NCBI GenBank assembly: GCA_030429865.1
Contig: JAUIFX010000001.1
Span: 2,190-66,189, forward strand
Direction of reading: 5' to 3'
From: Gammaproteobacteria bacterium
Lineage (GTDB): Bacteria > Pseudomonadota > Gammaproteobacteria > Ga0077536
Length of the DNA stretch: 64,000 nucleotides
Numbering within the stretch: position 1 is the stretch's first letter; each line of letters begins with the position of its first letter. Position numbers and translations under genes: made by a program. Under the pieces are notes generated by a model. It made no database searches, had not been told where the DNA came from, and saw nothing but the letters and a program-made list of their open reading frames with translations. Positions 6,750 through 64,000 of this stretch are shown here, in pieces.

Positions 6750-6915
6750 GACGTGTCCTTCCTGCGGCTGTTTCGCATGGCTCAGATGACGCGATTATAC
6801 CGGCCGCGGGGCATGCCGAGGGCATTTCCACAACACATGCACGGGTAACGCGCGGCGCCCGGCACGATCGGGTAGCATCGGGTTCCCGCCCAGGGATCGA
6901 CGAGGCTCAAGCCCC

Positions 6916-9633: not shown

Positions 9634-9963
9634 CGCCTGCGCTGCCGTGCACCACGCCGGGGCCGCCGTGACACGCCGCCAGGGCGTAACGGGCGATGTC
9701 CGGCAATACCTCGCCACTCGCTTCATCCGTTGTTGACGTGCCACCGGGGCCGTGCTCTCCTAGCCGGGCATCGGCAGTCAGCCCTCGGCTCCAGCGCTTC
9801 GGCGTCGACCGGTAGCGGGCAGCGGATGGCAGGGATGGTGCGCGCCCGGGGCCGCTCGACACGGCCTTCGACGCGACGCGATTAACGGGGCAGGTGCGTG
9901 CACACGCGCATCCGCGACGTCAGCCTTACGACGAAGAAAACCTGATAACGAGGGAGATAACAA

Positions 9964-12162: not shown

Positions 12163-12168
12163 TCCCCG

Positions 12169-20185: not shown

Positions 20186-20264
20186 GTTTCCGAGAGTATT
20201 GCCGCGCGCCAGTATCCGGGGCACCGTGCGCGAATGCCAGTGCCGTGAGCAGACCCGATCGAGA

Positions 20265-20310
20265 TTGCCGGATATTCCTATAATGCAGTTTAAGTAATTT
20301 TCGAAACTGC
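20265..20310. promoter_or_regulatory. AT-rich divergent promoter island with consensus TATAAT and a 7-bp inverted repeat
   Basis: Local AT-rich patch ~20270-20345 in a ~70% GC background. TATAAT at 20279-20284 (+). Inverted repeat GCAGTTT(20285-91)/AAACTGC(20304-10). Lies between the divergent halogenase and cNMP-binding/export genes. Confidence 0.35.
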
Positions 20311-20416
20311 TTGTTTTATTTGATACATCGCGTATCGTAAATCATCCTGCGCGAGCCTCGTGAAGGCGCACCACGCGCGCTGTGCGGCCACTGCCAACGA
20401 CAACCGGGGAGCGTCC

Positions 20417-24637: not shown

Positions 24638-27551
24638 CGCGCGCACGATCACCATTCCGCGCGCGGAGCTGCGCCGCCTCGGTGCGCGCAAGATCCGCAT
24701 TCTCGGACATCACCCGCTGGTCCTCGACGATCCGTCGCGCATGTGGATCATCGCCGCAGGCGAGGTTTCGGTGATGACTTCCCACGTCGATCGCGGCCTG
24801 CCGGTCGGCCTGCGCCAGCTGGTCTTCGAGGCCGGTGTCGGCACGCCGCTGTTCCCCGTCTCCGACGGACGCAGCGAGGATGCCGAACGGCTCATCGTGA
24901 CCTCCACTGCCGAGGTCACCTTCTACGAAGCGCCGCTGCGCGCGGCGCGCGAGCTGCTCGCACTGATCGGGCTGTCGCTGCGCGAGGCGATCGACGACTG
25001 GACCAACAAGTTGTCGCGTTTCGCCGCCCGCGAGGAAGTGTTTGCCGGCGCCGACCGCTTTCCGCACGAGGGCAAGTTCGGACTCGCTGACGGCATGCTG
25101 GTCTCGGTCAGCCCGAACCAGGTCGCCTGGCTGCAGATCGAGAGCGGCGACCTGAACGCGTTCGGCGATCCGGAACTCGCCGTCGGCACGCTGCCGTTCT
25201 ACATGCCGGTGGGCGGCGAGATCTGGTTCCAGGCCGCCGACGAAACGCGCGTGCGCGTCAGCGACGAACTCGCGAATGCCTCCGACCTCGACCTCGTGCG
25301 TGGCCTGGCGCTGTTCAATTCGCTCCTGCAACGCCGCCTGCGCCAGTTCGAGCGCGCCGCCCAGGAAGCCGAGCGCGAACGGCTCGAACGCTCGGCACAA
25401 GTCGAATCACGCATCTTCGACGGCACGCTCGAGAAACTCGCCGGCGTGCTCAACCGGCGCGAAACCGTGCCGCAGCGCGAAAGCCTGCTCCTGACCGCCG
25501 CGACCATCGTCGGCAACGACCTTGGTGTTGCGATCGCGCCGCCCGCGCGCTCGGAGGATCCGCGGCGCATGAAGGATCCCGTCGAAGCCATCGCCCGCGC
25601 TTCGCGCCTGCGCCACCGTACCGTGATCCTGGCCGGCCGCTGGTGGGAGAACGACAACGGGCCGCTGCTCGCCTACCTCGAGGACGACGACATCCCGGTC
25701 GCGCTGGTGCGCGACCAGTGGCACGGCTACCAGATGACCGATCCGCGACACGGCGTGGCCGTGCCGGTGACACCCGACATCGCCCTCTCCCTCAAGCCCA
25801 AGGCGGTCATGTTCTACCCGCGCCTGCCCGAGAGCGTGCGTACCGCCTGGGCCGTGCCGCGCTTCGCCATGCGCGGCCGCATGTGGGACATGATCTTCGT
25901 CGCCCTGCTGTCGCTGACCATCACCGGCATCGGCATGCTGGTGCCGCAGGCGACCGCGCTGATCATGGACAACGCGATCCCCGATGCCAATCGCCGCCTG
26001 CTCGCCGAGCTCGGCGCCGGACTGGCCATGGCGGCCTTCGGCGCCGCCCTGTTCGGCATCGCCCAGGGGATCCTCAGTATCCGGCTCGGCATCCTCTCCG
26101 ACAGCGTCAGCCAGTCGGCCGTGTGGGATCGCCTGCTCAGCCTGCGCCTGCCGGTGTTCCGGCGCTTCTCCAGCGGCGACCTGCTCGACCGCGCGATGTC
26201 GGTCAGCGCGGTCAACCAGGAGATCAACGGCCAGGCGATGCGCACCATCCTGACCAGCGGTACCGCCCTGCTCAACCTCGGCCTGCTCTACTACTACAGC
26301 AGCAAGCTCGCCTGGATGGTCGCCGGCATCGGCATCACGATAGTCATCTTCACGCTCGCGGCCGGCTATCTGGCGCGACGCCACTACCGCCGCCTGATGG
26401 AACTGCAGGGGCCGTTCTTCGGTTTCGTCGTCGAGCTCGTCAACGCGGTCAGCAAGATCCGCATCGCCGGCGCGCAGCGGCGCGCTTTCGCGCGCTGGGC
26501 CGATCGCTACGTCGAGCAGCTGCACCTGATTCTCAAGGCGCAGAGCATCGAGGACTACGTGTCGGTGTTCAACCTGCTGATCCCCCTGGTCAGCGCCATG
26601 TTCCTGTTCTGGATGGGCGTGGAGATGCTCAACGCCGAGGGCGAGCAGCGCCTCAGCGTGGGCGTCTTCCTCGCCTTCAACACGGCCATGGGCACGTTCC
26701 TCGGCGGCGCCACGACGCTGTCCATCATGGGACTCGAATTCCTCGACACCATGGCCAAGGCGGCGCGCGTCAAACCGCTGCTGGTGGCACAGAGCGAGAT
26801 CTCCGACGATCTCCGCGACCCCGGCCGCCTGAGCGGTCAGATCGAGTTCAAGGACGTCCATTTCCGCTACGGCGAGGACGGCCCGCCGGTGCTCCGGGGC
26901 GTCAGCTTCCGCGTCATGCCCGAACAGTTCGTCGCCTTCGTCGGCCCCTCGGGCAGCGGCAAGTCGACGATCATCCGGCTCCTGCTCGGCTTCGAGGAGG
27001 CCGAGGCCGGGGTCGTCGCCTACGACGACCAGGACCTGACCGGGCTCGACATCACCGCCGTCCGGCGCCAGCTCGGCGTCGTGCTGCAGACCGCGCGTAT
27101 CAACTCGGCCTCGATCTTCGACAACATCGGCGGCGGCGCCGAGATCACGCTAGACGAAGCCTGGGAGGCGGCCGAGGACGCGGGCTTTGCCGACGATGTG
27201 CGCGAGATGCCGATGGAAATGCACACCGTGATCAGCGAGGGCGGCACCAACCTCTCCGGCGGCCAGCGTCAGCGCCTGCTGATCGCCCGCGCGCTGGTGC
27301 GCAACCCACGCATCCTCGTTTTCGACGAGGCCACCAGCGCGCTCGACAACAAGACCCAGGCGACCGTCACCGAAGCGCTCGACCGACGCAAGGTCACGCG
27401 CCTGGTCATCGCCCACCGCCTGAGCACGATCCGCAACGCCGACCGCATCTTCGTGCTGGCCCAGGGACGCATCGCCGAATCCGGCACCTTCGACGAACTC
27501 GTCGCCAACGGCGGCATCTTCGCCTCCATGATGGCGCGCCAGATCGTGTAA
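24630..27551 (+). CDS. Second ABC transporter (permease plus ATPase) with N-terminal cNMP-binding-like regulatory domain (NHPM-type)
   Basis: 973 aa; Walker A GPSGSGKST, LSGGQRQR, ILVFDEATSALD; ~350-aa N-terminal non-transporter domain. ATGA-type overlap with the upstream ABC gene. Confidence 0.85.
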   Translation: MTDARTITIPRAELRRLGARKIRILGHHPLVLDDPSRMWIIAAGEVSVMTSHVDRGLPVGLRQLVFEAGVGTPLFPVSDGRSEDAERLIVTSTAEVTFYEAPLRAARELLALIGLSLREAIDDWTNKLSRFAAREEVFAGADRFPHEGKFGLADGMLVSVSPNQVAWLQIESGDLNAFGDPELAVGTLPFYMPVGGEIWFQAADETRVRVSDELANASDLDLVRGLALFNSLLQRRLRQFERAAQEAERERLERSAQVESRIFDGTLEKLAGVLNRRETVPQRESLLLTAATIVGNDLGVAIAPPARSEDPRRMKDPVEAIARASRLRHRTVILAGRWWENDNGPLLAYLEDDDIPVALVRDQWHGYQMTDPRHGVAVPVTPDIALSLKPKAVMFYPRLPESVRTAWAVPRFAMRGRMWDMIFVALLSLTITGIGMLVPQATALIMDNAIPDANRRLLAELGAGLAMAAFGAALFGIAQGILSIRLGILSDSVSQSAVWDRLLSLRLPVFRRFSSGDLLDRAMSVSAVNQEINGQAMRTILTSGTALLNLGLLYYYSSKLAWMVAGIGITIVIFTLAAGYLARRHYRRLMELQGPFFGFVVELVNAVSKIRIAGAQRRAFARWADRYVEQLHLILKAQSIEDYVSVFNLLIPLVSAMFLFWMGVEMLNAEGEQRLSVGVFLAFNTAMGTFLGGATTLSIMGLEFLDTMAKAARVKPLLVAQSEISDDLRDPGRLSGQIEFKDVHFRYGEDGPPVLRGVSFRVMPEQFVAFVGPSGSGKSTIIRLLLGFEEAEAGVVAYDDQDLTGLDITAVRRQLGVVLQTARINSASIFDNIGGGAEITLDEAWEAAEDAGFADDVREMPMEMHTVISEGGTNLSGGQRQRLLIARALVRNPRILVFDEATSALDNKTQATVTEALDRRKVTRLVIAHRLSTIRNADRIFVLAQGRIAESGTFDELVANGGIFASMMARQIV

Positions 27552-27716
27552 GTGATGACGTCGCCGGCCGGCCCCACCGGCCGCGCATTGCACCACGGGC
27601 TGCCGCCCACCGCCTGTCCCCGGATCCTCGATAATCAGTATCGATATACTAAAATTAGATAGTTATATCGCTTTTCTCGTGTAAACTCTTACCTGATTCA
27701 GGCACGACGACATCCC

Positions 27717-30053
27717 ATGCAGCAGCCGCGGCCATTCCGTCCCCGAGCCCCGCGCCACGCCGCCGGCGCGCGCCTGCTGGCGCTCGCCGGCAGCACCCTG
27801 CTGCTCGCCGCCTGCAGCACCCGCGTGCCGCACCCGCTGCTCGACGAGGCGACCGAACGGCAGGCGACGACCATCGAGCTGTCACAGCCGCCGGCCGTCG
27901 ACGGCGCACGGGGCACGCGCGCGTCGGCCGTGACGCCGGCCGCGGACGACCCGGTCGCGGCCCCCAACGGGAGCTCGGCGAACCAGCAGCCCGCGGACAC
28001 ACCGGCCGGCACCGACACGGTTGCCGAAAGCCCCCGTCCTGCGCCGGCCGGCGCAGCGCAATCCGCCGTGGACGCACCGGTGCCGGAAGCCGCCGCCGGC
28101 GCCGCGAGCCCGCCGCCGCAGCTGCCCATCGGCATTGCCGACGTGCGCAGCCAGGCCATCGGCAACAATCTCGAGATCAAGACCGAGCTCGTCCGCCCCG
28201 CACTGCTGCGCGAGGATCGCCGCGAGGCCGAGGCACGCTTTCTGCCGACCGCGTTCGCCCGCTACACCTATTCCGCGTTCGACGAGCCGGGCGTCGCACC
28301 GACGCGTAATCCCAACGGGTCGACCACCGACGACGCCGAGCTCGGCATCGTCGTGCCGCTGCAGACCGGCGGCAGCGCGCGCGTCAGCGTACCGATCACA
28401 CGCACCGACTTCGGCGTCCCCGGCATCGAGAACGTGCACGACGCGGCGACCACTTTCTCGCTCAGCCAGCCGCTGCTGCGCGATGCCGGCCGTCACGTGA
28501 ATATCGCACCGATCACCGTCGCGCGGCTGCGCGAGCGCCAGCAGGACGCACAAACCAAGCTCGCCATTCTCAACGTCCTGGCGGGGGCGGATCGCTTCTA
28601 CTGGAATCTCTATGCCGCCTCGCGTGCGGTCGAGGTCCGCCTGCAGCAGTACGAACGCGCCAAGGAACAGGAGCGCCAGGCCGTGCGCCTCGCCGAGGAA
28701 GGCGTGGTGCCGGCGATCGAAGTGGTCCGCGCGCGCTCGGGCGTCGCGCGGCGCGTCGAAGACATCATCCGCGCCGAGAACACCCGCCGCCAGGTCGAGC
28801 GCGAGATCAAGCGCGCCATGAACCGGCCCGACCTGCCGGTCACCGGTGCCACCGCGCTACTCGTGACCACGCCTCCCGACCCGGTCGAGATCGTGATCGA
28901 CCGGCCCGCGGCGCTGGCCAGCGCGCTGGACAACCGCATGGAGCTGCTCAACCTCGAACTGCAGCTCGCCGTCGATGCGCTCTCGGTCGACGTGGCGCGC
29001 AACCAGAAGCTGCCCAGCCTCGCGCTCGACTACAGCTTCCGCTACCTCGGTGCGAGCAACGAGCTGGCCGAGGCCTTCGAGCAGATCGGCCGCACCGATT
29101 TCGCCAACCAGAGCATCGGGCTGACGCTGGAAGTGCCGCTCGGCAACCAGGCGCGCGTGGCGCGCTACAACCGCGCCGTACTGCAGCGAGCGCTGACCGC
29201 CGCGAACCGTGCCCAGCAGGCCCAGATCATCGAGCGCCAGGTGCTCGATACGGTCGACCAGCTCGACGAGGCGTGGCAACGCATCCTCGCAGCACGCGAG
29301 GAGACGCTGCTGGCCGCGCGCAACTTCCAGGCCGAACAGCGCCAGTTCCGCGCCGGCGTGCGCACCAGCACCGACGTCCTCATCGCCGCCGACTTTCTCG
29401 CCGATGCCCAGATCAAGGAACTCAATGCGCTCGCCGCCTACGAGATTGCCAAGATCGACCTCGCCTTCGTTACCGGCACCCTGCTCGGCAGCGGCAACGT
29501 CCAGCTTGCCTCGTTCGACGAAACCCACGACATCGACGAAGTCTCCGCCGCCGACATCGACAGCCTCGCCCCGATGCCGCCGAGTCCGCCGGTGTCGACC
29601 CAGGAGTCGATTGCACGCAAGCTCGAACGCCTCGACGTCAAGGCGCCTTCGGCGGCGTCGGTGCCGGGGATGCCCGACCTGCCGGCGCGTCCCGACGCGA
29701 TCCGGCCCGGTCTCAACCCGTCGGCCGTGCTGCCGGCGCGGCCCGCGCCATTGGCACCCGGCACCAGCAGCGACGCGGCCGGCGGCAATGTCGCGAGCGC
29801 CGGCGGCGACGCAGCCGGCGCCGTGGGGACAGCAGGCACCCCGGCCACCATCACCGTCGCCGCCGACGACACGCTGTGGTCACTCGCGCGCCGCTACCGC
29901 CCCGACGACAGCGTCAGCGTGCCGCACATGCTTGCCGCCATCATCGCGGCGAATCCGCGACAGTTCGGCGATGCCAACCCCGACCGGCTGGTGACCGGAA
30001 CCGTCCTGCGCGTCCCCGGCGAGGCGGACCTCGCGGCGACGGCACGCCCCTGA
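27717..30053 (+). CDS. TolC-like outer-membrane efflux lipoprotein with Pro-rich linker and C-terminal LysM-like domain
   Basis: Lipobox LLAAC-S; two outer-membrane-efflux-protein repeats; Pro/Ala-rich linker; C-terminal TITVAADDTLWSLARRYRPDD...LVTGTVLRVP resembling a LysM peptidoglycan-binding motif. Confidence 0.7.
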   Translation: MQQPRPFRPRAPRHAAGARLLALAGSTLLLAACSTRVPHPLLDEATERQATTIELSQPPAVDGARGTRASAVTPAADDPVAAPNGSSANQQPADTPAGTDTVAESPRPAPAGAAQSAVDAPVPEAAAGAASPPPQLPIGIADVRSQAIGNNLEIKTELVRPALLREDRREAEARFLPTAFARYTYSAFDEPGVAPTRNPNGSTTDDAELGIVVPLQTGGSARVSVPITRTDFGVPGIENVHDAATTFSLSQPLLRDAGRHVNIAPITVARLRERQQDAQTKLAILNVLAGADRFYWNLYAASRAVEVRLQQYERAKEQERQAVRLAEEGVVPAIEVVRARSGVARRVEDIIRAENTRRQVEREIKRAMNRPDLPVTGATALLVTTPPDPVEIVIDRPAALASALDNRMELLNLELQLAVDALSVDVARNQKLPSLALDYSFRYLGASNELAEAFEQIGRTDFANQSIGLTLEVPLGNQARVARYNRAVLQRALTAANRAQQAQIIERQVLDTVDQLDEAWQRILAAREETLLAARNFQAEQRQFRAGVRTSTDVLIAADFLADAQIKELNALAAYEIAKIDLAFVTGTLLGSGNVQLASFDETHDIDEVSAADIDSLAPMPPSPPVSTQESIARKLERLDVKAPSAASVPGMPDLPARPDAIRPGLNPSAVLPARPAPLAPGTSSDAAGGNVASAGGDAAGAVGTAGTPATITVAADDTLWSLARRYRPDDSVSVPHMLAAIIAANPRQFGDANPDRLVTGTVLRVPGEADLAATARP

Positions 30054-31610: not shown

Positions 31611-31613
31611 TGC

Positions 31614-31637
31614 CCGTGGACACCGCTTGGTCCACGG
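31614..31637 (+). terminator. Perfect 8-bp inverted repeat hairpin immediately after the flippase stop
   Basis: ccgtggac-accgcttg-gtccacgg, 4 nt after TGA (31608-10). No U-tract, so could equally be a protein-binding palindrome. Confidence 0.3.
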
Positions 31638-31769
31638 CACTACACTCGATGCCCGGTAAGGAACCAGTCTGCCCCGTTCGCGGTCAGAGGGGCTTTCGGC
31701 AGCCGGACGCCGCGCGGGACGACCGTCCCACGTATCCCCGCCGGCCAGGTGCGCGGGCAATCATGTGAC

Positions 31770-34286
31770 ATGAAACGATTTTTCTCGCATCGCCGCCGCC
31801 GCGCCGGCAGCGGCACGTCCGAAGACGATCCACGCCGGTTCCTCGATACCATCGTATTCCCGCCCACCCCCGGGGCGGCCCCATCGCCGCTGCCGCCGGT
31901 CCGGATTTTTCTCGGCACGGAAGCCGCGCACTACCGGGCCGAACGCGTGTTCCTGTGGTCGATCCTCGAACATCGCAACCCCGCACGGCGTTACGAAATC
32001 ATCCTGATGAAGGATCTGCCCGGTTTCGACCGCACGGCCTGGACGACCGGTTTCAGCAACTACCGCTTCGCCATCCCCTACCTCGCGGGCGGCGCGGGCC
32101 GCGCGATCTACAACGACGTCGACCAGATCTATCTCGCCGATCCCGGCGTGCTGTTCGACCACGACCTCGGCGACCACGGCTTTCTCGCCCTGTCGGGCGA
32201 GGACACCTCGGTGATGCTCATCGATTGCGCGCGCATGGACGACGCATGGCCGCTCGCGCGTGCGCGCAGCGCGCCGAAGCGGGAACTGCTGGCCCACGCC
32301 GCCGCCCTTCGCGGCGACTTGCCGGCCGAGTGGAACGCTCGCGACGAGGAGTTCCGCGCGGGAAACAGCAAGCTGCTGCATTTCACGGCGCTGCACCTGC
32401 AACCCTGGACCCCGGAGCCCGATCGCTTCGCCTACCGTGCGCATCCGCACGGCGAACGCTGGTACGCGCTCGAGCGGGCCGCGGACGCGGCGGGCTTCAC
32501 GGTATTCGACCGCGCGCACCCGAGCCGGCGTTACCGCGAGCTGATCGCGTGCTGCAGCGATCTCCACGCCCATGGCAGCGGCACGCCCGGGCAGAGCGCC
32601 GGGCAGACGTTCCCCGGACAGGTCCTCCCACGCCATGTCGGCAGCGTCGCCCGCCTGGTCGAAGCAGCCAATGCGCGGACCGTCCTCGACTACGGCGCCG
32701 GCAAGGCCGGCGCCTACCAGTCACTGCCCGGAGAGCCGCCGGAATCGCCGGTCAAGGCCATGCCGGCATGGGGCGCGGACCTGCGCGTGACCGTCTACGA
32801 CCCGGCCTATCCGCCTTACAGTGAGCTGCCCGAGGGCCGCTTCGACGGCGTCATCTGTACCGACGTCCTCGAGCACATCGCCGAGGAAGACATCCCGTGG
32901 ATCCTGCAGGAACTGTTCTCCCATGCCACGGCGTTCGTCTATGCCTCGGTCGCCTGCTACCCGGCGAAGAAGGTCCTGCCCAACGGCGAGAATGCGCACG
33001 TCTGCCAGAAGCCGCCGGCCTGGTGGGATGCGCAGTTCCGTGCCGCCGCGCGCGCACACCCGCACGTGCATTGGGAACTGTCGATCCGCAAGAAGAACTG
33101 GCGCGGCAAGAAAGTCCGGCTGAGCCGCGTCGGCGGTCACTGGCTGGACCGCCCGCGCGTCTGGGTGCTCGGCGATGACAAGCCCGGGAATACCAACCAG
33201 GCCATCGCCCTCGCCGCGGCGCTGGGCTATGACTACGACCTGCGCGTGCTCGAGTACGGTCCGCTCGCGCACCTGCACAATCGCCTGCTCGGGGCGAGCC
33301 TGGCGGGCCTGACGCAGCGCTGCGCGGCGAGCCTCGCACCGCCGTGGCCGGAACTCGTCGTCGCTTGCGGCCGCCGCACCGCGCCCGTGGCACGCTGGAT
33401 TGCGAAGCGCTCCCGCGGCGCTACCCGCGTGGTCCAACTCGGCCGCAAGGGCGGTGACACGGCACGTCCGTTCGATGTCGTCGTGACACCGGCCCACTGC
33501 CACCTTGCCGGCGACCCTCGACGCATCGAGACCCTGTTGCCGCTGACGCCGCTGGCCATTGCCAAGGGCGCCACCACGCCTGCAGGGGGCGCGAGCCCCC
33601 GCACCGTGGTGCTGCTCGGCGGCGCCACCCGCCGCTACCGTTTCGACGCCGATGTGATCGACGACCTGGCACGCCGACTACGCGCCGATCATGCCGCACA
33701 CGGCGGCGAGCTGTGGGTCCTGACCAGTGCGCGGACCGGCGCCAAGGCGCTCGCGCAACTCTCCGCCGCACTCGATGACGACACCCGCATCTTCGACCCG
33801 GATACGCTCGGCAGCCGCTACTGGGAGACCCTCGTCGCGGCTGACCGCATCATCGTCAGCGGCGAGAGCGAGTCCTTGCTCGCCGATGCGGTCGCGACGG
33901 GACACCCGGTGTTCATCCACGCACTGCCGCCGCGACCCCAGTCCTTGCTGCTGCGGGCCGGTGCGCAGCTCGACCGCTGGGCGCGCCGGCGCCCGACCAA
34001 CCGGCGCGCCACCACGCGCCCGCAGCGCGGGCTCGAATATCTCTGCGCACGGCTGATCGAAACGGGCCTGGCACGGCCGCCGCGCAACCTCGAAGAGTTG
34101 CACCAGGCCTTGTACGCGCGCGGCGTCGCACAACCGTTCGGCGCCGCGCCGACGCCCCTGGACGCAGCCCATCCGCTGCGGTTCAGCGCGACAGAGGAAA
34201 CAATAGAAGTCGCCCGGCGTGTGCGCGAGGCGCTCGGCTTCGGCGTCTGGACCTCGCCCGCGGAGCCGCCCGGTCAGGACGTCTGA
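31770..34286 (+). CDS. Three-domain fusion: GT8-like glycosyltransferase (DxD) plus class I SAM-dependent methyltransferase plus ELM1/DUF1022-like C-terminal domain
   Basis: N-terminal IYNDVDQIYLADP (GT8 DxD). Middle VLDYGAGKAG...FDGVICTDVLEHI (SAM methyltransferase motifs I and post-I). C-terminal VWVLGDDKPGNTNQAIALAAALGY resembling the ELM1 family. Single 838-aa ORF. Confidence 0.55.
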   Translation: MKRFFSHRRRRAGSGTSEDDPRRFLDTIVFPPTPGAAPSPLPPVRIFLGTEAAHYRAERVFLWSILEHRNPARRYEIILMKDLPGFDRTAWTTGFSNYRFAIPYLAGGAGRAIYNDVDQIYLADPGVLFDHDLGDHGFLALSGEDTSVMLIDCARMDDAWPLARARSAPKRELLAHAAALRGDLPAEWNARDEEFRAGNSKLLHFTALHLQPWTPEPDRFAYRAHPHGERWYALERAADAAGFTVFDRAHPSRRYRELIACCSDLHAHGSGTPGQSAGQTFPGQVLPRHVGSVARLVEAANARTVLDYGAGKAGAYQSLPGEPPESPVKAMPAWGADLRVTVYDPAYPPYSELPEGRFDGVICTDVLEHIAEEDIPWILQELFSHATAFVYASVACYPAKKVLPNGENAHVCQKPPAWWDAQFRAAARAHPHVHWELSIRKKNWRGKKVRLSRVGGHWLDRPRVWVLGDDKPGNTNQAIALAAALGYDYDLRVLEYGPLAHLHNRLLGASLAGLTQRCAASLAPPWPELVVACGRRTAPVARWIAKRSRGATRVVQLGRKGGDTARPFDVVVTPAHCHLAGDPRRIETLLPLTPLAIAKGATTPAGGASPRTVVLLGGATRRYRFDADVIDDLARRLRADHAAHGGELWVLTSARTGAKALAQLSAALDDDTRIFDPDTLGSRYWETLVAADRIIVSGESESLLADAVATGHPVFIHALPPRPQSLLLRAGAQLDRWARRRPTNRRATTRPQRGLEYLCARLIETGLARPPRNLEELHQALYARGVAQPFGAAPTPLDAAHPLRFSATEETIEVARRVREALGFGVWTSPAEPPGQDV

Positions 34287-56168: not shown

Positions 56169-57989
56169 GTGCGATACCTGGCCGCATGGGGCGTCGCGCT
56201 GCTGCTGAGCGCAGCGGCTCACGCCGGAAAAGACGAGGCGCATGCCGCGCTCGCGCCGATCGCGGACGCGGACTGGAGCCGTGCGCACGCCGCGCACCTG
56301 CTCGAGCGCGCCGGCTTCGGCGGTACACCGCGCGAGGTCGACCGTCTCGCCGCGCTGGGCCCGCGCGCGGCGGTGCGGCACCTCGTGCATTTCGCGGGCA
56401 CGGCGGCCGACACCCTGCCGCCGTTCGAGCATTCGGGCATCTTCGACGAAGGCCTCGACCCCTTCCCGCCCAGCCGGCCGGCCACCACCAAGCTCGCCAC
56501 CGAGACCGGCGAGGCGCTCGGCATCAAGGTCCGCAGCGGCGGCAACCGTCCGCTGCAGCCCATCGTCAACAAGTTCTTCTACTGGCTGCGCGCCAGCCGC
56601 CTCGAGACCGACCGGGTCGCCCAGTGGTGGGCCGAACGCATGCTGCGTTCGCCACGGCCGCTCGAGGAGAAGATGGCGCTGTTCTGGCACGGACATTTCG
56701 CGACCAGCGAGGACAAGGTGCGCGACTATCGCAAGATGCTGCAACAGCTCGAACTGTTCCAGCGCGCCGGTCTCGGCAACTTCCGCACCCTGCTCGTGGC
56801 CGTGGCGCAGGACCCCGCAATGCTCGCCTATCTCGATGCCGGCGTGAACGTGAAGGGTTCGCCGAACGAGAACTTCGCGCGCGAGATCATGGAGCTGTTC
56901 ACGATGGGCGTGGGCAACTACAGCGAGCACGACATCCGCGAAGCGGCGCGCGCGTTCACGGGCTGGAACTTCGTCGGCACCGAGTTCCACGTCGATCCGG
57001 CCAGGCACGACGACGGACCGAAGACCTTCCTCGGCGAGACCGGCAACTTCGACGGTGTCGAGATCATCGACCGCATCCTCGCCCACCCTGCGACGCCCGC
57101 ATTCATCGCCGCCAAGCTGTATCGTTTCTTCGTCCGCGAAGATCTCGATCCAGCGCTCGAAGAAGCCCTCGCCGACAGACTCGTCGCGCTCGATTACGAG
57201 CTCGCGCCGTTCCTCGAGACACTGTTCCTCTCGCGCGACTTCTATGCCGACGCCTCACGCGGCACGCGCATCAAGAGCCCGGTCGAATTCGTCATCTCGA
57301 CCTACCGCAAGCTCGGTCTCACCGACCTGCCGGGCGCGCCCGACTTCAACCTCGTCACCGGCGCGCTCGGTCAGCGCCTGATGCATCCGCCGACGGTCGC
57401 CGGCTGGAGCTACGGGCGCAGCTGGATTACGCCCAGCCTGCTCATCGAGCGCGGCAATTTCGCCCTCGACCTGGCGTTCCCGGACATCGAGTTCATCCCC
57501 GAAGATCGCTACCCGGTCTACCCCACGGGGGAGGAGATCCGCGCCGTGCACCGGCGTCTCCGTGCCGGCGCCGACATGACCACGGCGACGCGCCCGGTCG
57601 AAGCCGGCATGAGCGAGGACGGTGACATGATGACGGCGATGTCCAACCAGGTCGATCGCGAGGAAGCCTTCAATACGCGCTACGGCAGCTATCGCGGCTG
57701 GCAGATGGCGATCGAACGGGTCAAGCCGATCGAGCGCGATCTCGCACCGCTCGACCTCACGCACATGGTACTCGCCGCCGAACTCGCCACGCCGCTCGCC
57801 GTCGTCGACCATTTTGCCCACCGTTTTCTTTCCGTGCCGCTCACCGAAGACACGCGCCGGCTGCTCGCCGACGCCTTCGAGCGCGAACTCGGCAGCGCCG
57901 ACGTGCTGGCCAACGCCACCTCGCTCGAAGAACCACTGCGCGTGCTGCTGCACCTCGTGCTGAGCCGGCCCGAGTACCAGCTGGGGTGA
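56169..57989 (+). CDS. DUF1800 family protein (secreted)
   Basis: Signal peptide; conserved DUF1800 features (FWHGHFATS, ELFTMGVGNYSE...). Followed 4 nt later by its usual DUF1501 partner. Confidence 0.7.
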   Translation: MRYLAAWGVALLLSAAAHAGKDEAHAALAPIADADWSRAHAAHLLERAGFGGTPREVDRLAALGPRAAVRHLVHFAGTAADTLPPFEHSGIFDEGLDPFPPSRPATTKLATETGEALGIKVRSGGNRPLQPIVNKFFYWLRASRLETDRVAQWWAERMLRSPRPLEEKMALFWHGHFATSEDKVRDYRKMLQQLELFQRAGLGNFRTLLVAVAQDPAMLAYLDAGVNVKGSPNENFAREIMELFTMGVGNYSEHDIREAARAFTGWNFVGTEFHVDPARHDDGPKTFLGETGNFDGVEIIDRILAHPATPAFIAAKLYRFFVREDLDPALEEALADRLVALDYELAPFLETLFLSRDFYADASRGTRIKSPVEFVISTYRKLGLTDLPGAPDFNLVTGALGQRLMHPPTVAGWSYGRSWITPSLLIERGNFALDLAFPDIEFIPEDRYPVYPTGEEIRAVHRRLRAGADMTTATRPVEAGMSEDGDMMTAMSNQVDREEAFNTRYGSYRGWQMAIERVKPIERDLAPLDLTHMVLAAELATPLAVVDHFAHRFLSVPLTEDTRRLLADAFERELGSADVLANATSLEEPLRVLLHLVLSRPEYQLG

Positions 57990-57993
57990 TGCC

Positions 57994-59178
57994 ATGACCA
58001 CGCGACGCCAATTCATCCAGGGCAGTGCCGCGGTCGGCGCCGCCGCGCTGACGTCCGCGTTCGCACCGCGGCTGCGCGCGGCGGGCGACGAGCGCATCCT
58101 GGTCGTGTTCGAACTCTCGGGCGGTAACGACGGGCTCAACACCATCGTGCCCTACGCGGACGATACCTATTACCGGCTGCGGCCGAAGATCGGCCTGCGG
58201 CGCGACGAACTGCTCGTGCTCGACGAGCACTACGGCATGAACCCGGGCCTGGCCGGCATGCACCGGCTATGGCAGAACGGTAATCTCGCCATCGTGCACG
58301 GCTGCGGTTACGCGCACCCCTCCTACTCGCACTTCACGTCGATGGCCTACTGGCACACCGCGTCACCCAACTCGGGCGATGCCTACGGCTGGGTGGGCCG
58401 CCTCGCCGACGCGCTGGAACCCGAGCCGCGGACGAATTTCCTGATCAACATCGATAGCGCGCAGTCGCTCGCCGTGAACAGCCGCGTGCACACGCCGGTC
58501 GTATTCGACGAGCCCGAGCGATTCCAGCGCCTGGCGCTCGCCCGCGAGCGGGAGGTGTTGGAGCGTGTCGCACCGGGCGGCTCGGGCAACCCGGCGCGCG
58601 ACTATCTCAACATGGTGGCCGCCAGCGCGAACGAAGCCTCGACCCGGGTGCGCGAAGCCTGGCGCAACTACGAATCGCCGGTCGATTACGGCCTGCTGCC
58701 GGCGCAGCTCGACAAGGTCGCCGCCTGCATCAGCGCCGGCCTGCCGGCGCGGCTCTACTACCTCGCCTTCCGCAACAACGCGTTCGATACCCACGTGCAG
58801 CAGCGCGACCTGCACCAGCGCCTGCTGACGTATGCGTCCGATGCCGTGGCCGGCTTTCTCGCCGACCTCGAGCGCCTCGGCGCGGCTGACCGCGTGGTCG
58901 TGCTGATGTTCTCCGAGTTCGGCCGCCGTGCCGGCGAGAACACCAACCTGGGCACCGATCACGGCACGGCCAACGTGATGTTTCTTGCCGGCAAGCCCGT
59001 ACGCGGCGGCCATTACGGCGCGCCGCCCGACCTCACCGAGCTCGACGACACGGACAACCTGCGCCACACGACCGACTTCCGCCGCGTCTACGCCAGCGCA
59101 ATCGACGGCTGGATGCGGCCGGGCGCGAGCGAGGCCGTGCTCAAGGGGCGCTTCGAGCCCTTCCCGGTGTTCGGCTGA
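57994..59178 (+). CDS. DUF1501 family protein with twin-arginine (Tat) signal
   Basis: Tat motif TRRQFIQGSAAVGAAALT; sulfatase/phosphatase-like fold features (SGGNDGLNT, GTDHGTANVMFLAG). Confidence 0.75.
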   Translation: MTTRRQFIQGSAAVGAAALTSAFAPRLRAAGDERILVVFELSGGNDGLNTIVPYADDTYYRLRPKIGLRRDELLVLDEHYGMNPGLAGMHRLWQNGNLAIVHGCGYAHPSYSHFTSMAYWHTASPNSGDAYGWVGRLADALEPEPRTNFLINIDSAQSLAVNSRVHTPVVFDEPERFQRLALAREREVLERVAPGGSGNPARDYLNMVAASANEASTRVREAWRNYESPVDYGLLPAQLDKVAACISAGLPARLYYLAFRNNAFDTHVQQRDLHQRLLTYASDAVAGFLADLERLGAADRVVVLMFSEFGRRAGENTNLGTDHGTANVMFLAGKPVRGGHYGAPPDLTELDDTDNLRHTTDFRRVYASAIDGWMRPGASEAVLKGRFEPFPVFG

Positions 59179-59253
59179 CGCCGGCAATGCGCGGGCGGTA
59201 ACGGTCCGTGTCAGGCAGCACGGGCCACCACCCGGGGCACGCCGCGGTGACGC

Positions 59254-60642
59254 TCAGAAGTAGAACGTGATGTCGGCATAGCCGTAGGCAGTGTCACCCT
59301 CACCGGTCGCGTTAGGCGCGGTGTCGAGGAAGCTGCCGTTGAGGAACAGCGCGCCGCCGGCTTCCAGGCGCACGCTCTGCGGCAGCAACCAGTAGCGTCC
59401 GCGCAACTCGATCTGGTGACCGGCGAAACTGCTGCTCGCACCGCTCGCATCGCGCACACCGCTCAGTCCCAGGCTGTCGCGGTCGGAGTCCAGCCACACG
59501 GCGCGCCAGGTCATCATGGCATCGGCGCGCGAGGTCGGCGCGACCTCGATGCGCAGCCCCGGCGAATTCAGGTTCGAACGGATGAGGTGGGTAAAGATCG
59601 AGGTTGGCCCGAGATCACCGCGCACCGGGCCGTAGAGACCGTCGAAGCGGCCGAAATCGCCGTCGTTCGGATCGTCGTCGCCCGAGGCGTAATCATATTG
59701 CAGCGACAGGCGCGGCGACCACGGCAGCGCGAACAGGCGGCCGAGCTCCGCGTGCGCGTAGCCGGCGAAGACATCGAGATCGCGGCGATCCAATGGCGAG
59801 GCGGTCGCACGCGCCTCGCCCGTCTGTACGCCACCCTCGAGGTCGAAATCGAGCTGCCCGCTGGCGCGCGGGCGGAACAGGCGCGCCCCGAACGTGACGA
59901 TCCGGCGGTTCTGCGTCTGGTGCTGCCAGTCGCCGTCGCGCTCGTGCAGGCCGAGCACGAAGCCCTCGATGGCGGTATCGCGCGCCGCCGGGTAGCGGTA
60001 GTGCACGCCCCATAGCTGCGTGTCGAAACTTTCGCGGTCGAACGCGACCTCGTTGTCCAGCACGCTGGCGCGGTCGAGCGGCAGGCGGCTGTGCGGCAAC
60101 AGGTACATGAGGGTCAGGAGCTCGTCGTGCCGCCCGCCGAGTTCCAGCTTGGCGCCGGTGAAGGCGTTCGGCATGTTGCGAAACAGGTTGCGCCCGATGA
60201 GCCGGCCCGCGCCGAGGTCGAACATCATGCGGCCGAGCATGAGATCGACGTTCTCGACCGGGCCGTCGAGGCCCTCGAAGTGCGCGCCCAGGTAGGCCTG
60301 CGCGAGTTCGGCCGTGTCGACCAGGTTGCTGTCCGCCGCGCCTCCGCGGTCGGTCAGGTAGGCGCGCGCGTCGAGCAATTCGCCGACCACGCGCCAGCGC
60401 TCGCCGTGCGCGGCGAGGCGCACGCTGGTGTACAGGCTGAGTGCCTGGTCGCCCCCCTCGCGCCCGGCGCGGAACTGGTCGTCGAGCGTTTCGTAGCGCG
60501 TGCGGTGCACGAGATCGAGACGCAGCCAGGCGGGCAGGCCGAGCGCGGACTGCAGCTGCCGCGGCGCGGCCGCCGCGGAGGCACCGCAAAGGCAGGCGCC
60601 GAGCAGCGCGATCGAAGGCAACAGTAACTTGAATCGGGTCAT
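59254..60642 (-). CDS. Alginate-export (AlgE-like) family outer-membrane beta-barrel protein
   Basis: Signal peptide, alternating beta-strand pattern, C-terminal ...YADITFYF ending in Phe. Confidence 0.55.
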   Translation of the reverse strand: MTRFKLLLPSIALLGACLCGASAAAAPRQLQSALGLPAWLRLDLVHRTRYETLDDQFRAGREGGDQALSLYTSVRLAAHGERWRVVGELLDARAYLTDRGGAADSNLVDTAELAQAYLGAHFEGLDGPVENVDLMLGRMMFDLGAGRLIGRNLFRNMPNAFTGAKLELGGRHDELLTLMYLLPHSRLPLDRASVLDNEVAFDRESFDTQLWGVHYRYPAARDTAIEGFVLGLHERDGDWQHQTQNRRIVTFGARLFRPRASGQLDFDLEGGVQTGEARATASPLDRRDLDVFAGYAHAELGRLFALPWSPRLSLQYDYASGDDDPNDGDFGRFDGLYGPVRGDLGPTSIFTHLIRSNLNSPGLRIEVAPTSRADAMMTWRAVWLDSDRDSLGLSGVRDASGASSSFAGHQIELRGRYWLLPQSVRLEAGGALFLNGSFLDTAPNATGEGDTAYGYADITFYF

Positions 60643-60723
60643 GAAGATGGGTGTCCTCGTGGTATCGGGTGGCGTCGTCCGCGCGCGGCCGCCTGCCGCG
60701 TGCGGCGCCCGCGGGGTACAGGA

Positions 60724-61986
60724 TCAACCAGGCAGCAGCCCGAAGGCAAAAGCGAAGGCGGAAACCATGAGACCGAAGGTGACTGCGAGTTCGCGCGGCC
60801 GCAGGTCGCTCGGTTGCGCACGCCCTGCGGCGCCCTGGAAGAGATAGAGATACATTTTCATCATGGTCATCGCGTTCAGCGCACCGCTGACCACGACCAG
60901 CGTGGTCGGCACCGCGGCGCCGGCGAAAGCGCCGCGCAGCACGAGATCGGAGGCGACGTAGCCGAGGGTGAGCGGCAGACCCGCGCTGACCAGGCCGAGC
61001 ACGAGAAAGGCGTTGGCGAGGCGCGGCCAGGACGCGTAACAACCGTGCGGGCGCACGAGGCTCAGCGCCGCACCCAGGCGCGCTTCGAGCGCACCGAGCA
61101 ACAGCACGAAGCCCGTGCTCGCGGTCACCACCGTGAGCAGGACGAACGTCCCTCCGACGACCGCCGCCTCGCCAGTGCTGAACTCCGCGAAGCCGGCAAC
61201 CGCGAGCTGGCTTGCCACGATGCAGGCGCAAGCACGACGCGCGTCGCGCTGGGCGAGCGCGAGCAAGGCATTGCCGAGCGCGGCGAACGCGAGCAGCCAG
61301 GAGAGCGGCTTCCGGGCCGGTTCCGGCACCACCGCGACTGCCGATTCGAGAACCGAGGCCTGCAGGATGACGATGCCCGCGAAGAGATTCAGCGGCAGCA
61401 CCTGTGCGAGGCGCAGGTACCAGGCGTGCAGCGGGGGCGCGGCGAGCAGTGCGAGCAACCAGCCCCCTGCGGCCAGCCCGCTCGCCGTGCCGAACCCCAG
61501 CGCCGCACCCGCGAGCACGCCGAGCAGGCCGGGCAGGATCAGCAGCAGCACCGCTGCTTCGCGCCCACCCGGTGCGGCCGCGAGGCTCGCCGTCGCGGCC
61601 GCGAAACCGACCAGCGGCAACACGCACACCAGCCACGGCGCGGCGGCGAACGGCACCGCGGCGGCGGTCGCAACCAGCACGCAAAGTACGGCGAGGTCGT
61701 AGCGCGACATACGCAGCGCGGGCGACAGCGCCAGCGCAACCACGCCGCTGCCGAGCGCCGCGAACGCGATCACGCGCGCGGAGAGCCATGGCAGTTCCGG
61801 TGGCAGGGCGAGCATCGATCGCTCGGGCAGGTGCAACAGCAGCCCCACGCCCACCGCGAGCGTCGCGGCGGCGAGCGCAGCGGTCGCGGCACGGCGTGCC
61901 ATGACGCGGTCGGGAGCGAGCACCGAGAGCAAGGCGCCAACCATGGCGCAGGTAATGCCGACCGTCAGCATGAGATCAGGATACAT
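60724..61986 (-). CDS. Polytopic membrane protein (possibly proton-conducting transporter subunit, NuoN/MrpD-like)
   Basis: 420 aa, >10 hydrophobic helices. ATG at 61986 with AGGAGAAGG SD, overlapping the upstream NuoL-like gene by 11 nt. Confidence 0.45.
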   Translation of the reverse strand: MYPDLMLTVGITCAMVGALLSVLAPDRVMARRAATAALAAATLAVGVGLLLHLPERSMLALPPELPWLSARVIAFAALGSGVVALALSPALRMSRYDLAVLCVLVATAAAVPFAAAPWLVCVLPLVGFAAATASLAAAPGGREAAVLLLILPGLLGVLAGAALGFGTASGLAAGGWLLALLAAPPLHAWYLRLAQVLPLNLFAGIVILQASVLESAVAVVPEPARKPLSWLLAFAALGNALLALAQRDARRACACIVASQLAVAGFAEFSTGEAAVVGGTFVLLTVVTASTGFVLLLGALEARLGAALSLVRPHGCYASWPRLANAFLVLGLVSAGLPLTLGYVASDLVLRGAFAGAAVPTTLVVVSGALNAMTMMKMYLYLFQGAAGRAQPSDLRPRELAVTFGLMVSAFAFAFGLLPG

Positions 61987-63373
61987 GGGCCTTCTCCTCG
62001 TTACGCCCGGCCCGGCGACCGCGCGGCAGCGCGGCGAGCACGGCGCGCGCCAGGCGGCCGGACCAGCGCTGCTCGGCAGCATCCAGGCCGCGCAGGGCAT
62101 CGAGCAGCACGCCGATCACGCGGTCTGTGAGCAGGGCATCCAGGCCGCCGCGTTCGAGCGCATGGCGGTAGACACGCGGCAGGGTCAGCCAGCGGTTGCT
62201 GCCGCTATCCAGGTCGATCGCGTGCGAAACGTGGTGCCCGAGCATCTGCTCGAGATGGTGACGATCGTGCAGCAGGCTCGGCGCGCGCAGGATCTGGAGC
62301 GTACGGTAGCCGGCATGGCCGATGATGTGCAGCAGCGCGACCAGGTGCAGGCCCAGGCCGATCTCGGCCATGATCAGACCGACCTGGGTCACCGAACCGT
62401 AGGCCAGCATGCTCTTGATGTCGGTCTGCACGCGCCCGACCAACGCGCCGTGCAGCGCGGTCGCCAAGCCGACCCCGATCAATGCGCCGCCAATCAGGGG
62501 TGACGCGTGGACCTGCTCGTGGCAACGCAGCAGCAGGAAGGGCCCGAGGTGTACGGACAACGCGCCGTAGAAAATCGCGCTGGACGGAGTCGGCCCTTCC
62601 ATTGCCCGCGGCAGCCAGCCCGAGAACGGCACCTGCGCCGACTTGCCCATCGCCGCGAACATCAGCGAGAAGCCAATGAGCAGGGACAGGGCGCCGGCGG
62701 CGCGTTGCGGCATGCCGAGCCAGGCGGCATTGCCGGGGCGAACGAAATCCGCGTCGCCGAAGTTCACGTGCAGGCAGACGATCGCGATGACGAGACCCAC
62801 GTCGCAGGCGCGGTAGGTCACGAACGCGCGCAGCGCATTGCGTACCGGTCCCGGGCGCTGGTTGAAGAACGCGATGAGCAGCGTCGAACTGATACCGACC
62901 AGTTCCCAGCCGATCAGCAGCATGTCCAGGCTGCCGGCGAGCGAGACCAGGGCGAGACCGGCGGCGAACAGCATGAGCAGCGCGTAGAAGCGATGGAAAC
63001 CCTGCTCGCGGTGCAGGTAGCGCCGCGAGAACGCGGCGACCAGCGCGACCATCAGCAGGCTGAAGCCGCCATAGGCGAGACCCAGCGCGTCGAGGCCGAA
63101 ACGCACTTCGAAGGCGTCATGGCCGACCGCGAACCAGCGCCCCGCACCGACGACGCTGGGTGCGCCGAGACCGGCCAGCAACACCGCTGCGAGGAGGCCC
63201 ATGAAAAGGCTCGCCCCGAGTACCCCGGTGGCAACGACGCCGTAGGTGTAGGCCTCACTGGTCGCGCGGCCGAACAGGCGCGGCAACAGCACGGCGGCGA
63301 AGGCCAGCACCGGCAACGCCGGCACCAGCAGCACGACATGCGCGCTCGTCGCGCGCAGTAGTTCAGGCAGCAT
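61976..63373 (-). CDS. NuoL/MrpA-family (complex I subunit 5-like) proton-translocating membrane protein; DabB-like
   Basis: 465 aa; conserved NuoL-family segment LLIGWELVGISSTLLIAFFNQRPG; ATG 63373 with GGAGGTGG SD; 7 nt downstream of a large soluble upstream ORF. Confidence 0.65.
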   Translation of the reverse strand: MLPELLRATSAHVVLLVPALPVLAFAAVLLPRLFGRATSEAYTYGVVATGVLGASLFMGLLAAVLLAGLGAPSVVGAGRWFAVGHDAFEVRFGLDALGLAYGGFSLLMVALVAAFSRRYLHREQGFHRFYALLMLFAAGLALVSLAGSLDMLLIGWELVGISSTLLIAFFNQRPGPVRNALRAFVTYRACDVGLVIAIVCLHVNFGDADFVRPGNAAWLGMPQRAAGALSLLIGFSLMFAAMGKSAQVPFSGWLPRAMEGPTPSSAIFYGALSVHLGPFLLLRCHEQVHASPLIGGALIGVGLATALHGALVGRVQTDIKSMLAYGSVTQVGLIMAEIGLGLHLVALLHIIGHAGYRTLQILRAPSLLHDRHHLEQMLGHHVSHAIDLDSGSNRWLTLPRVYRHALERGGLDALLTDRVIGVLLDALRGLDAAEQRWSGRLARAVLAALPRGRRAGRNEEKAHVS

Positions 63374-64000
63374 GTTCCACCTCCGCACGGACGCGTGCGC
63401 AGGACAGGTGCCCACGCCGGCCGGTGTAATGATCCATCGACGATTCGACGAGCGGCAGATCGCGCGAATGCGGCACGTACGGTACGAAACGCCCTTCCTC
63501 GAAGACCTGTACCGCGCCGCTCTCAGGGTCGACCGCGGCAAGCTGGATCCAGCGGTTGAGCACCAGCGCCGCGACGCCGGGGCGGGTCGCGACGATGTGT
63601 TCGAGTACCGCGGTGGTCGCCTCGACCACGGTGAGCAGGCGCATCGGCTCGTGGATCTCGACCATCTGCCAGGGCAGTCCGGTGCGCAGGTCGGAAGCGT
63701 GACCGTCGACGACGCCGACAAGACCCGTGATGTTGTGCGGCAACTTGGTCCCGCAGCCGTAGCCGCGCGGGTCGACATAGCTGAAGTAGTACTCGAGACT
63801 GATGCCGGCTCCGACCGGGGCGGCAGCCGCGAGCAGCGCGCCGAGCTTGGCGCCGTCCGCGTCATCACGCGGATCGTAGGAGATGAGGAACGCGCGACGG
63901 TCGAGAAACAGGCCGCGCGTGCTGCGCCGCCGGCCGATTACGCACACCGCGTTGGTGGCGTGTCCATACTCGGGCCGCGGCTGGCCGAGGTCCGTCGCGT
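63363..64000 (-). CDS. C-terminal part of a large soluble protein running off the window edge (possible DabA/DUF2309)
   Basis: Frame stays open from 63947 to the window edge (no stop in 64000..63948). Soluble C-terminus ...YGCGTKLPHNITGLVGVVDGHASDLRTGLPWQMV.... Sits immediately upstream of a NuoL-like gene, the DabA-DabB arrangement. Family assignment rests on context only. Confidence 0.35.
   Translation of the reverse strand, partial: ATDLGQPRPEYGHATNAVCVIGRRRSTRGLFLDRRAFLISYDPRDDADGAKLGALLAAAAPVGAGISLEYYFSYVDPRGYGCGTKLPHNITGLVGVVDGHASDLRTGLPWQMVEIHEPMRLLTVVEATTAVLEHIVATRPGVAALVLNRWIQLAAVDPESGAVQVFEEGRFVPYVPHSRDLPLVESSMDHYTGRRGHLSCARVRAEVEHAA

Follow-up and report, generated by a model that had tools for sequence, protein, structure and literature searches.

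The last 3.3 kb of the DNA analysed here, a 64,000-nucleotide stretch of contig JAUIFX010000001.1 from a Gammaproteobacteria bacterium (hereafter the window), is packed with a minus-strand gene trio consisting of the 3' end of dabA, a short dabB, and a third gene encoding another membrane protein. In our view, this locus probably represents the distal end of an operon encoding a DAB-type complex, that is, an ion-gradient-driven CO2-hydrating system or "vectorial carbonic anhydrase", with a third architecture. Desmarais et al. (2018/2019) described DABs as pairs of PF10070 and PF00361 proteins acting as energy-coupled CO2 hydratases. In the window, a PF10070 gene is adjacent to and co-oriented with a PF00361 gene outside any nuo or mrp operon, which places the locus in the DAB family in this broad sense; yet it does not have the features that define either DAB1 or DAB2. 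The first-pass annotation had called the arrangement a hallmark of DAB complexes. Its DAB interpretation is supported, but "hallmark DAB" is too simple for a locus that differs from both characterised types in features to which the 2026 structures assign importance. We file it as a member of a third architectural class that has been recorded once, as a gene neighbourhood, and never characterised.

The large soluble frame at the edge of the window (63363..64000, minus strand, 212 codons) was identified as DabA/DUF2309 by a PF10070 search (E 2.8e-69, 234.8 bits). Its TGA stop codon lies at 63365-63363, and the frame is open to the window edge without a stop, confirming that it runs off the sequence. 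The dabB gene (61976..63373, minus strand) encodes a short form of 465 aa that matched PF00361 (E 2.5e-41), with NuoL as the top NCBIfam model. Its ATG (63373-63371) lies within the end of dabA, producing an 11-nt overlap (ATGCTGCCTGA); the first-pass annotation had placed the NuoL-like gene 7 nt downstream, a figure that corresponds instead to the spacing between the ATG and a GGAGG ribosome-binding site read from the sequence inside the dabA end (63381..63385, minus strand). The overlap and the ribosome-binding site suggest translational coupling. The third gene, or "long DabC" (60724..61986, minus strand, 420 aa), has the coordinates originally given for it; it is a second, highly divergent PF00361 protein, which scored 33.9 bits (cut-off 21.5) and matched NuoM-type NCBIfam models. 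Its start overlaps the dabB stop by 11 nt (ATGTATCCTGA), and a GAGGAG ribosome-binding site, again read from the sequence, is located 7 nt before its ATG (61994..61999, minus strand). Both junctions (63363-63373 and 61976-61986) thus have an identical 11-nt start/stop layout, ATGnnnCCTGA, with a Shine-Dalgarno sequence 7 nt upstream. Among the comparison loci from relatives, which are designated by L numbers, 11-nt overlaps were also present in the gene calls of L001 and L004, and 4-nt or 1-nt overlaps in the Polyangiales and Planctomycetota loci.

No further subunits of complex I or Mrp were found, either within the 64-kb window or in the 10-kb flanks of the relatives. As the first-pass annotation had stated, the NuoL-like protein therefore stands apart from the other complex I and Mrp subunits, and membership of a nuo or mrp operon is ruled out. 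The locus is followed by a porin gene, DUF1501/DUF1800 genes, a GGDEF gene, and gcvTHP; sulP lies ahead of it in the syntenic relatives. Judging from relatives that are ~92% identical, the complete gene order at the window locus would be sulP, dabA (~986 aa), short dabB, the gene for a full-length NuoM-like subunit, and the gene for an outer-membrane porin.

Both DAB2 and DAB1 can rescue E. coli that lacks carbonic anhydrase, and both accumulate inorganic carbon. DAB2 has two subunits, whereas DAB1 includes a third small membrane protein, DabC. DabC is essential, occupies the NuoM position, and is devoid of proton-path residues (Phillips et al. 2026, doi 10.64898/2026.05.01.722082). In the structure reported by Lo et al. 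(Nat Commun 2026; PDB 9rd0), DabB2 has 15 transmembrane (TM) helices, of which TM1-11 superpose on NuoL, and TM12-13 together with a DabA2 finger carrying Glu444 make up a proposed periplasmic half-channel in which Glu444 replaces NuoL K399/D400. The same study reported Ile in DabB2 at the position of NuoL E144, as well as Leu658 in DabA2 in place of the canonical Gln/His, a Leu described as "strictly conserved" among 150 homologues.

The window dabA fragment corresponds to the C-terminal quarter of PF10070 (156 positions) and aligned with the solved DabA2 (9rd0_A) at an E-value of 1.7e-26. In this alignment, a His of the window protein falls opposite Leu658, at the end of the motif DLGQPRPEYGH; the counterpart in DAB1 and DAB2 is DW(xxx)RPEWGL. 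The His was present in all 6 loci of the clade and in 80/80 metagenome loci, whereas DabA1 of Nitrobacter hamburgensis has Leu. The fragment is 92% identical to the C-termini of the L004 and L008 DabAs, and six full or near-full DabAs of the class (L004, L008, L001, L006, L014, and that of Haliangium ochraceum) keep the Cys, Asp, Arg, His, and Cys of the zinc site, equivalent to C351/D353/R355/H524/C539 of Halothiobacillus neapolitanus (Hn). Full-length relatives (984-998 aa) also have an intact lid motif (GxxGFFG) and NNPH...DCG motif, and one hydrophobic segment marks the finger/elbow. The beta-carbonic-anhydrase core, the lid, the NNPH...DCG motif, and the hydrophobic finger/elbow are all shared with DAB2 of H. 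neapolitanus.

Window DabB matched the solved DabB2 (9rd0_B) with an E-value of 3.7e-28, but its PF00361 match spans positions 1-232 of 294 only. The protein consists of NuoL-like TM1-11 followed by ~95 aa of conserved cytosolic helices, and no hydrophobic segment was found beyond approximately residue 362. An AlphaFold2 (AF2) model with a predicted local distance difference test score (pLDDT) of 83.8 agreed with this layout: the top Foldseek match was E. coli NuoL, with ~364 aligned columns that correspond to TM1-11, after which the cytosolic helices follow. Equivalents of NuoL E144, R175, D178, K229, K305, H334, and H338 are kept, the last four as K244, K320, H349, and H353, and the residue states of DabB, including two changes to Tyr and Arg discussed below, recur in 64-74 of 75 metagenome homologues. 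DAB2 likewise has the K229, K305, H334, and H338 equivalents. The Glu of TM5 occupies the NuoL E144 position, which in complex I is turned towards the adjacent subunit. In the cytosolic tail, Y402, R403, R408, and D412 were invariant in a 41-sequence DabB alignment but less strict in the 75 metagenome homologues, where R403 was Arg in 43. The short form is typical of the class: the best 120 matches to it were all 292-472 aa long (424-472 aa in 116 of them) and the median end-to-end length of metagenome DabBs was 454 aa.

The third protein was modelled by AlphaFold with a pLDDT of 85.8 and a predicted template modelling score (pTM) of 0.88. The model has 14 helices, with TM7 and TM12 broken, indicating a full NuoM/MrpD-like antiporter fold in which most proton-path charges are lost. 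The equivalents of NuoM E144, K265, and H348 are hydrophobic or missing and that of H322 is Gln, in each case family-wide. At the position of NuoM K234, most of the class has Arg and the subclade of the window has Leu. At or beside the NuoM E407 position, 50 of 55 homologues retain Asp or Glu (D347 in the window protein); R250, E301, R303, R398, and E399 are further strongly conserved charged positions. NdhD3 (6tjv_D) was the top Foldseek match of the third protein, with scores not clearly above those of ordinary NuoM. In the fold searches, MrpA and MrpD matched nearly as well as NuoL and NuoM.

Profile comparison identified the third protein as a full-length homologue of DabC. DabC of the N. 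hamburgensis DAB1 operon (253 aa, no Pfam match) was taken as the source, its family was collected, and the two family profiles were compared using hhalign. The families aligned collinearly over 221 columns (probability 90%, P 1.5e-6), residues 182-408 of the third protein matching DabC 12-239 from the Pro-x-His motif of TM7 onwards, whereas controls with reversed alignments and SulP gave P values of 0.26-0.44. A single DabC sequence gave no significant match to the third-protein profile (Prob 1.6%), so the family profile was needed. Direct comparison of DabC with E. coli NuoM yielded a P of 0.04, and that of the third-protein family with NuoM yielded 3.4e-9; as a full-length homologue of DabC, the third protein therefore provides a sequence-level bridge from DabC to NuoM. 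No profile match was obtained for the first 180 residues of the third protein, either to the NuoM N-terminus, to the DabB1 C-terminus, or to anything else. We also considered this N-terminus as the "missing" TM12-15 of DabB, an idea that lacks sequence support and is opposed by the fold match to full-length NuoM. DabC-family proteins are named "NADH:ubiquinone oxidoreductase subunit M/N" in some sources, and one member of the family, P0337, carries a precomputed PF00361 match.

The distribution of these genes was examined at several depths. A metagenome scan with the DabA C-terminus recovered >569 confirmed relatives, of which the best 80 were examined. The order dabA, short dabB, third gene was found in 44/44 metagenome loci having at least 3 kb of downstream sequence. 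The third gene, which had first been regarded as an unusual addition, is thus a fixed subunit gene of the class and homologous to DabC. This also disposes of the idea that it is an unrelated MpsC-like add-on, MpsC being staphylococcal and dispensable. The third-protein profile matched 206 cluster representatives at an E-value below 1e-30 and 820 below 1e-10 among 1.84 billion. A narrow pattern search of genome contigs with the third-protein alignment returned 3 loci, all from metagenome-assembled genomes (MAGs), and a word-indexed search returned 17 third-protein homologues only, a low count that is an artefact of the word prefilter. The numbers obtained with the profile and in the metagenomes show that this is not a rare class. 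It occurs in Gammaproteobacteria, Myxococcota (including the cultured Haliangium ochraceum), and Planctomycetota.

The full set of sulP, dabA (984-998 aa), short dabB (443-466 aa), second PF00361 gene (419-462 aa), and porin was present in L001, L004, L008, and L014, with sulP directly upstream of dabA in each. The first three are related MAG loci, two labelled Gammaproteobacteria and one Pseudomonadota; L014 is from a Planctomycetota MAG. L006 (a Polyangiales MAG) and L012 (reads of the cultured myxobacterium H. ochraceum) contain dabA, dabB, and the third gene. Across the 80 metagenome loci, SulP was found in 14 and an ArsR-like regulator gene in 9. In L037, a gene for an SbtA-type bicarbonate transporter (8811-10223; PF05982, E 8e-93) directly follows the third gene. 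The neighbouring SulP and SbtA-type genes lend support, by gene context, to a role in inorganic-carbon uptake. In some members, the bicarbonate-transporter gene is located downstream of the third gene and not ahead of dabA, the SbtA type being represented by L037 and the SulP type by L038, L039, L070, L085, and L087.

The class shares with DAB1, as known from the cryo-electron microscopy structure of Thermocrinis albus (Ta) and from Hneap_0907-0909 of H. neapolitanus, a PF10070 DabA of ~1000 aa, a PF00361 DabB, and a NuoM-related third subunit that has lost the NuoM proton-path charges. In contrast, DabC of DAB1 is ~250 aa long without a Pfam match, whereas the window third protein, with its 420 aa and 14-helix fold, passes the PF00361 cut-off. 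The gene order in DAB1 is dabB-dabC-dabA(-PII) beside carboxysome genes, compared with (sulP-)dabA-dabB-third(-porin) here, with no carboxysome genes in the window. In N. hamburgensis, DabB1 (565 aa) continues through TM12 and has F/H/K at NuoL positions 144/254/342, where the 465-aa window DabB has E/Y/R, and the DabA1 motif is DWAQVRPEWGL; the conserved Leu is L825 in Ta. Our DAB1 example, L096 (N. hamburgensis X14 plasmid 1, 265748-283385), carries its DAB1-type genes directly upstream of a carboxysome/RuBisCO operon; upstream of the complete dabB-dabC-dabA-PII operon there is an additional DUF2309 (dabA) gene, accompanied by an identical PII gene of its own. Compared with DAB2, which has two subunits only, the window class always has the third gene. 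The 15 helices of DabB2, its Ile at E144, and Glu444 and Leu658 of DabA2 are matched in the class by the absence of TM12-15, Glu, Pro, and His, respectively, and the DAB2 motif reads DWSQVRPEWGL instead of DLGQPRPEYGH.

The earlier record of the neighbourhood is that of Klimchuk et al. (2017; COGNAT, PMC5700660), whose "clade C" has ybcC (DUF2309) upstream of a nuoL homologue with SulP and NuoM genes nearby. A ybcC/dabA gene upstream of a nuoL homologue and a COG1008 (NuoM) gene are both present in the window; the COG0659 (SulP) gene is present in L001, L004, L008, and L014 and would lie beyond the edge for the window. That paper described a neighbourhood only, predates the DAB function, proposed an unknown exergonic enzyme, and described no residues, subunit truncation, DabC link, or porin. 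Our literature search found no paper linking clade C to DAB1, DAB2, or DabC, or describing residues of the clade. Cyanobacterial NDH-1MS/MS' (NdhF3/NdhD3/CupA) is comparable in that a NuoL-like and NuoM-like pair carries a soluble CO2-hydrating protein; however, CupA is unrelated to DabA, and the module belongs to a complete NDH-1 complex that is driven by redox chemistry. The window pair shares both membrane folds with complex I NuoL/NuoM and with MrpA/MrpD of Mrp, and its DabB retains the Glu of TM5, the Lys of TM7, and the His-His of TM11. The differences are that further nuo or mrp genes are absent, that DabB stops once TM11 is complete, and that the Glu of TM5 and the Lys of TM8 are gone from the third protein, as is the TM7 charge in the window subclade. 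MpsAB(C) of Staphylococcus aureus is likewise a pair of DabB and DabA homologues that supplies inorganic carbon in a heterotroph, but MpsC, unlike the conserved third subunit, can be dispensed with, occurs only in staphylococci, and is not collocated in other organisms.

Based on these comparisons, we infer that the three proteins form a complex and propose the following scheme. CO2 diffusing into the cell would be hydrated at a zinc site of the beta-carbonic-anhydrase type that lies buried in cytoplasmic DabA, and proton flow through the NuoL-like channel of DabB (TM4-11) would keep the reaction unidirectional. DabB may contact DabA through its extended TM11 and the conserved cytosolic tail. 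The third protein would dock on DabB at its TM5/TM7 face, in the manner of NuoM on NuoL and of the small DabC in DAB1; two observations fit this docking, namely that this class alone keeps the TM5 Glu and that the partner keeps the acidic residue of TM12. We favour a mainly structural or electrostatic role for it, without a second pump, since it has lost most path residues and, in the window subclade, the TM7 charge as well. SulP, together with the porin in the lineage of the window, could provide a parallel supply of bicarbonate. Because no autotrophy genes were found in the window, the likely purpose in this apparently heterotrophic host would be the provision of bicarbonate at low CO2, probably for carboxylations, by analogy with MpsAB in S. 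aureus.

Several observations weigh against this assignment. The zinc-ligand region of the window dabA lies beyond base 64000 and hence outside the window; exact-sequence searches with the window DabB and third protein, and with the 100%-identical P0018, returned no contig by which the locus could be extended. In DabA, Leu is changed to His at the canonical Gln/His position of beta-carbonic anhydrases, and the finger-motif Glu444 aligns to Pro in the class, in a stretch that is poorly aligned. TM12-15, which in DAB2 provide the periplasmic half-channel with the DabA finger motif, are absent from DabB. The NuoL H254 position is occupied by Y269 in the window and by Tyr in 74/75 homologues class-wide, and the K342 position by R357 and by Arg in 70/75. 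The +6 offset between K229 and K235 suggests that NuoL H254 corresponds to H260 of Hn DabB2, and the 2026 structure studies found this His (Ta H229 = Hn H260) to be essential in DAB1 and DAB2. In view of the Tyr and Arg in DabB, the loss of TM12-15, the Pro at Glu444, and the His in DabA, gating and the proton route may differ in the class. The placement suggested for the third subunit is purely an analogy. RuBisCO and carboxysome genes were not found within the 64-kb window, and in the literature found no member of the class was reported as experimentally tested.

The absence of TM12-15 raises the question of whether the proton path is shared by both membrane subunits. In such a two-channel pump, TM4-11 of the short DabB would serve as the half-channel on the cytoplasmic side, and the NuoM-like subunit would contribute either the periplasmic half or a second site of coupling, its acidic TM12 residue and, in most of the class, its TM7 Arg replacing DabB TM12-15 and DabA Glu444. 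The class DabB does lack TM12-15 and the NuoL K399/D400 region, and it keeps the TM5 Glu facing NuoM, which is Ile in DabB2 and Phe in N. hamburgensis DabB1. The third protein, for its part, has the acidic residue near NuoM E407 in 50/55 homologues, the Arg at NuoM K234 in most of the class, and strong conservation of R250, E301, R303, R398, and E399. However, the TM7 Arg is Leu in the window subclade, and family-wide the NuoM E144, K265, and H348 equivalents are hydrophobic or deleted and that of H322 is Gln. The homologous DabC of DAB1 shows neither a water chain nor a polar path, and complex I geometry would put a NuoM-like partner on the TM5 side of NuoL, whereas the gap is on the TM12 side. 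We regard this arrangement as unlikely and retain it mainly because DabB TM12-15 and Glu444 would need a replacement.

The same membrane pair could be read as a cation/bicarbonate transporter or an Mrp-like antiporter that moves Na+/H+, with DabA serving as a regulatory or bicarbonate-binding cap, following the Na+/HCO3- symport model of MpsAB. An MrpA-like plus MrpD-like pair is the core of the Mrp antiporter, the folds match MrpA/MrpD nearly equally to NuoL/NuoM, MpsAB of S. aureus has been proposed as a Na+/bicarbonate transporter, and His at the Leu658 position could stabilise bound bicarbonate. We nevertheless judge this very improbable: the MrpB, C, E, F, and G genes are missing, the relatives' DabA has the full catalytic beta-carbonic-anhydrase site, most transport residues of the third subunit are lost, and DAB2 works without Na+ and did not complement a Na+ transporter mutant. 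Still more remote is operation in the reverse, energy-conserving mode, in which SulP-imported bicarbonate would be dehydrated by DabA with its canonical His, driving ion export through the membrane subunits. Such a mode recalls the YbcC-NuoL energy-converting complexes of Klimchuk et al. (2017; PMC5700660), for which a coupling of exergonic chemistry to the export of ions was proposed, the number of ions rising with that of the membrane subunits, and it would fit the return of the canonical His missing from DAB1 and DAB2 and the tight SulP linkage. It is, however, without a thermodynamic rationale at normal cytoplasmic pH and CO2, all tested relatives run in the uptake direction, L658Q in DAB2 created no free carbonic anhydrase activity, and the third subunit is degenerate.

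Downstream of the trio, 81 nt after the third gene, lies a gene for an alginate-export-family outer-membrane beta-barrel (porin) of 462 aa (59254..60642, minus strand; PF13372, E 1.8e-45) with a signal-peptide-like N-terminus. No terminator-like site was found between the two genes, and a promoter/terminator scan of 58900-61100 found nothing; the porin gene is probably the final gene of the unit in the lineage of the window. In L014, it overlaps the third gene by 4 nt. None of the 80 metagenome loci was found to contain the porin; its link to the unit is thus lineage-specific, and we do not count it among the components of the class as a whole. Relative to the 91%-identical L004, synonymous to non-synonymous codon differences were 113:37 in the third gene, 124:56 in dabB, and 53:17 in the dabA fragment, and in all four genes synonymous differences were ~2-3 times as numerous as non-synonymous ones, a codon pattern indicating that the genes of the locus are real and under purifying selection.

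A DUF1800/DUF1501 pair (56169-59178, plus strand) adjoins the porin gene and has the same position in L001 and L004, where GGDEF and gcvT/H/P follow; a link of this pair to the DAB unit is not evident. The AT skew is +0.22 to +0.24 at 60001-64000, a stretch that holds the two minus-strand membrane-protein genes, compared with approximately -0.18 to +0.14 elsewhere in the window. An export gene set on the plus strand (22160-30053) comprises an ATP-binding cassette (ABC) transporter with an N-terminal C39 peptidase domain (22160-24637), an unusually long ABC protein in a 992-aa frame (24573-27551), and a TolC/OEP-like protein in a 796-aa frame (27663-30053); it looks like a secretion system of the type used for bacteriocins or ribosomally synthesized and post-translationally modified peptides (RiPPs). 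An 854-aa frame (12163-14727, plus strand) joins a tryptophan-halogenase-like flavin domain to FAD_binding_4 in an unusual fusion, and other flavin adenine dinucleotide (FAD) proteins are nearby (18170-20341). A tungsten-type aldehyde:ferredoxin oxidoreductase (AFOR_N and AFOR_C; 5028-6794, minus strand) occurs in this 70% G+C, apparently aerobic-type genome, and the C-terminal part of an 891-aa frame (31611-34286, plus strand) matches the ELM1 (mitochondrial fission) family.

Chemoautotrophs take up CO2 mainly through DAB pumps, which are also widely distributed among heterotrophs and pathogens and are candidate parts for engineered carbon-concentrating mechanisms. Their coupling mechanism was first modelled in 2026, from one DAB1 and one DAB2 structure. 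An abundant third class supplies natural "mutants" of these models, with no TM12-15, no finger Glu, Tyr for an essential His, a Glu at the subunit interface, and His for the "strictly conserved" Leu. For the window itself, the outcome is a sound annotation, a correctly spotted member of a common, unstudied class. By linking the orphan DabC to NuoM in sequence, the class also makes an origin of DABs from a NuoL/NuoM-type pair testable. It is conceivable, although we hold it rather doubtful, that the class represents the ancestral DAB state, in which a NuoL-NuoM pair from a complex I or Mrp-type module was capped by a canonical-His DabA, with the proton route shared between the truncated DabB and the NuoM-like subunit; the half-size DabC of DAB1 and the 15-helix DabB of DAB2 would then be later simplifications. 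If so, the features on which the coupling models of DAB1 and DAB2 are built, namely the finger Glu, the TM12-13 half-channel, and the Leu in place of His, would be derived solutions and not the core mechanism.

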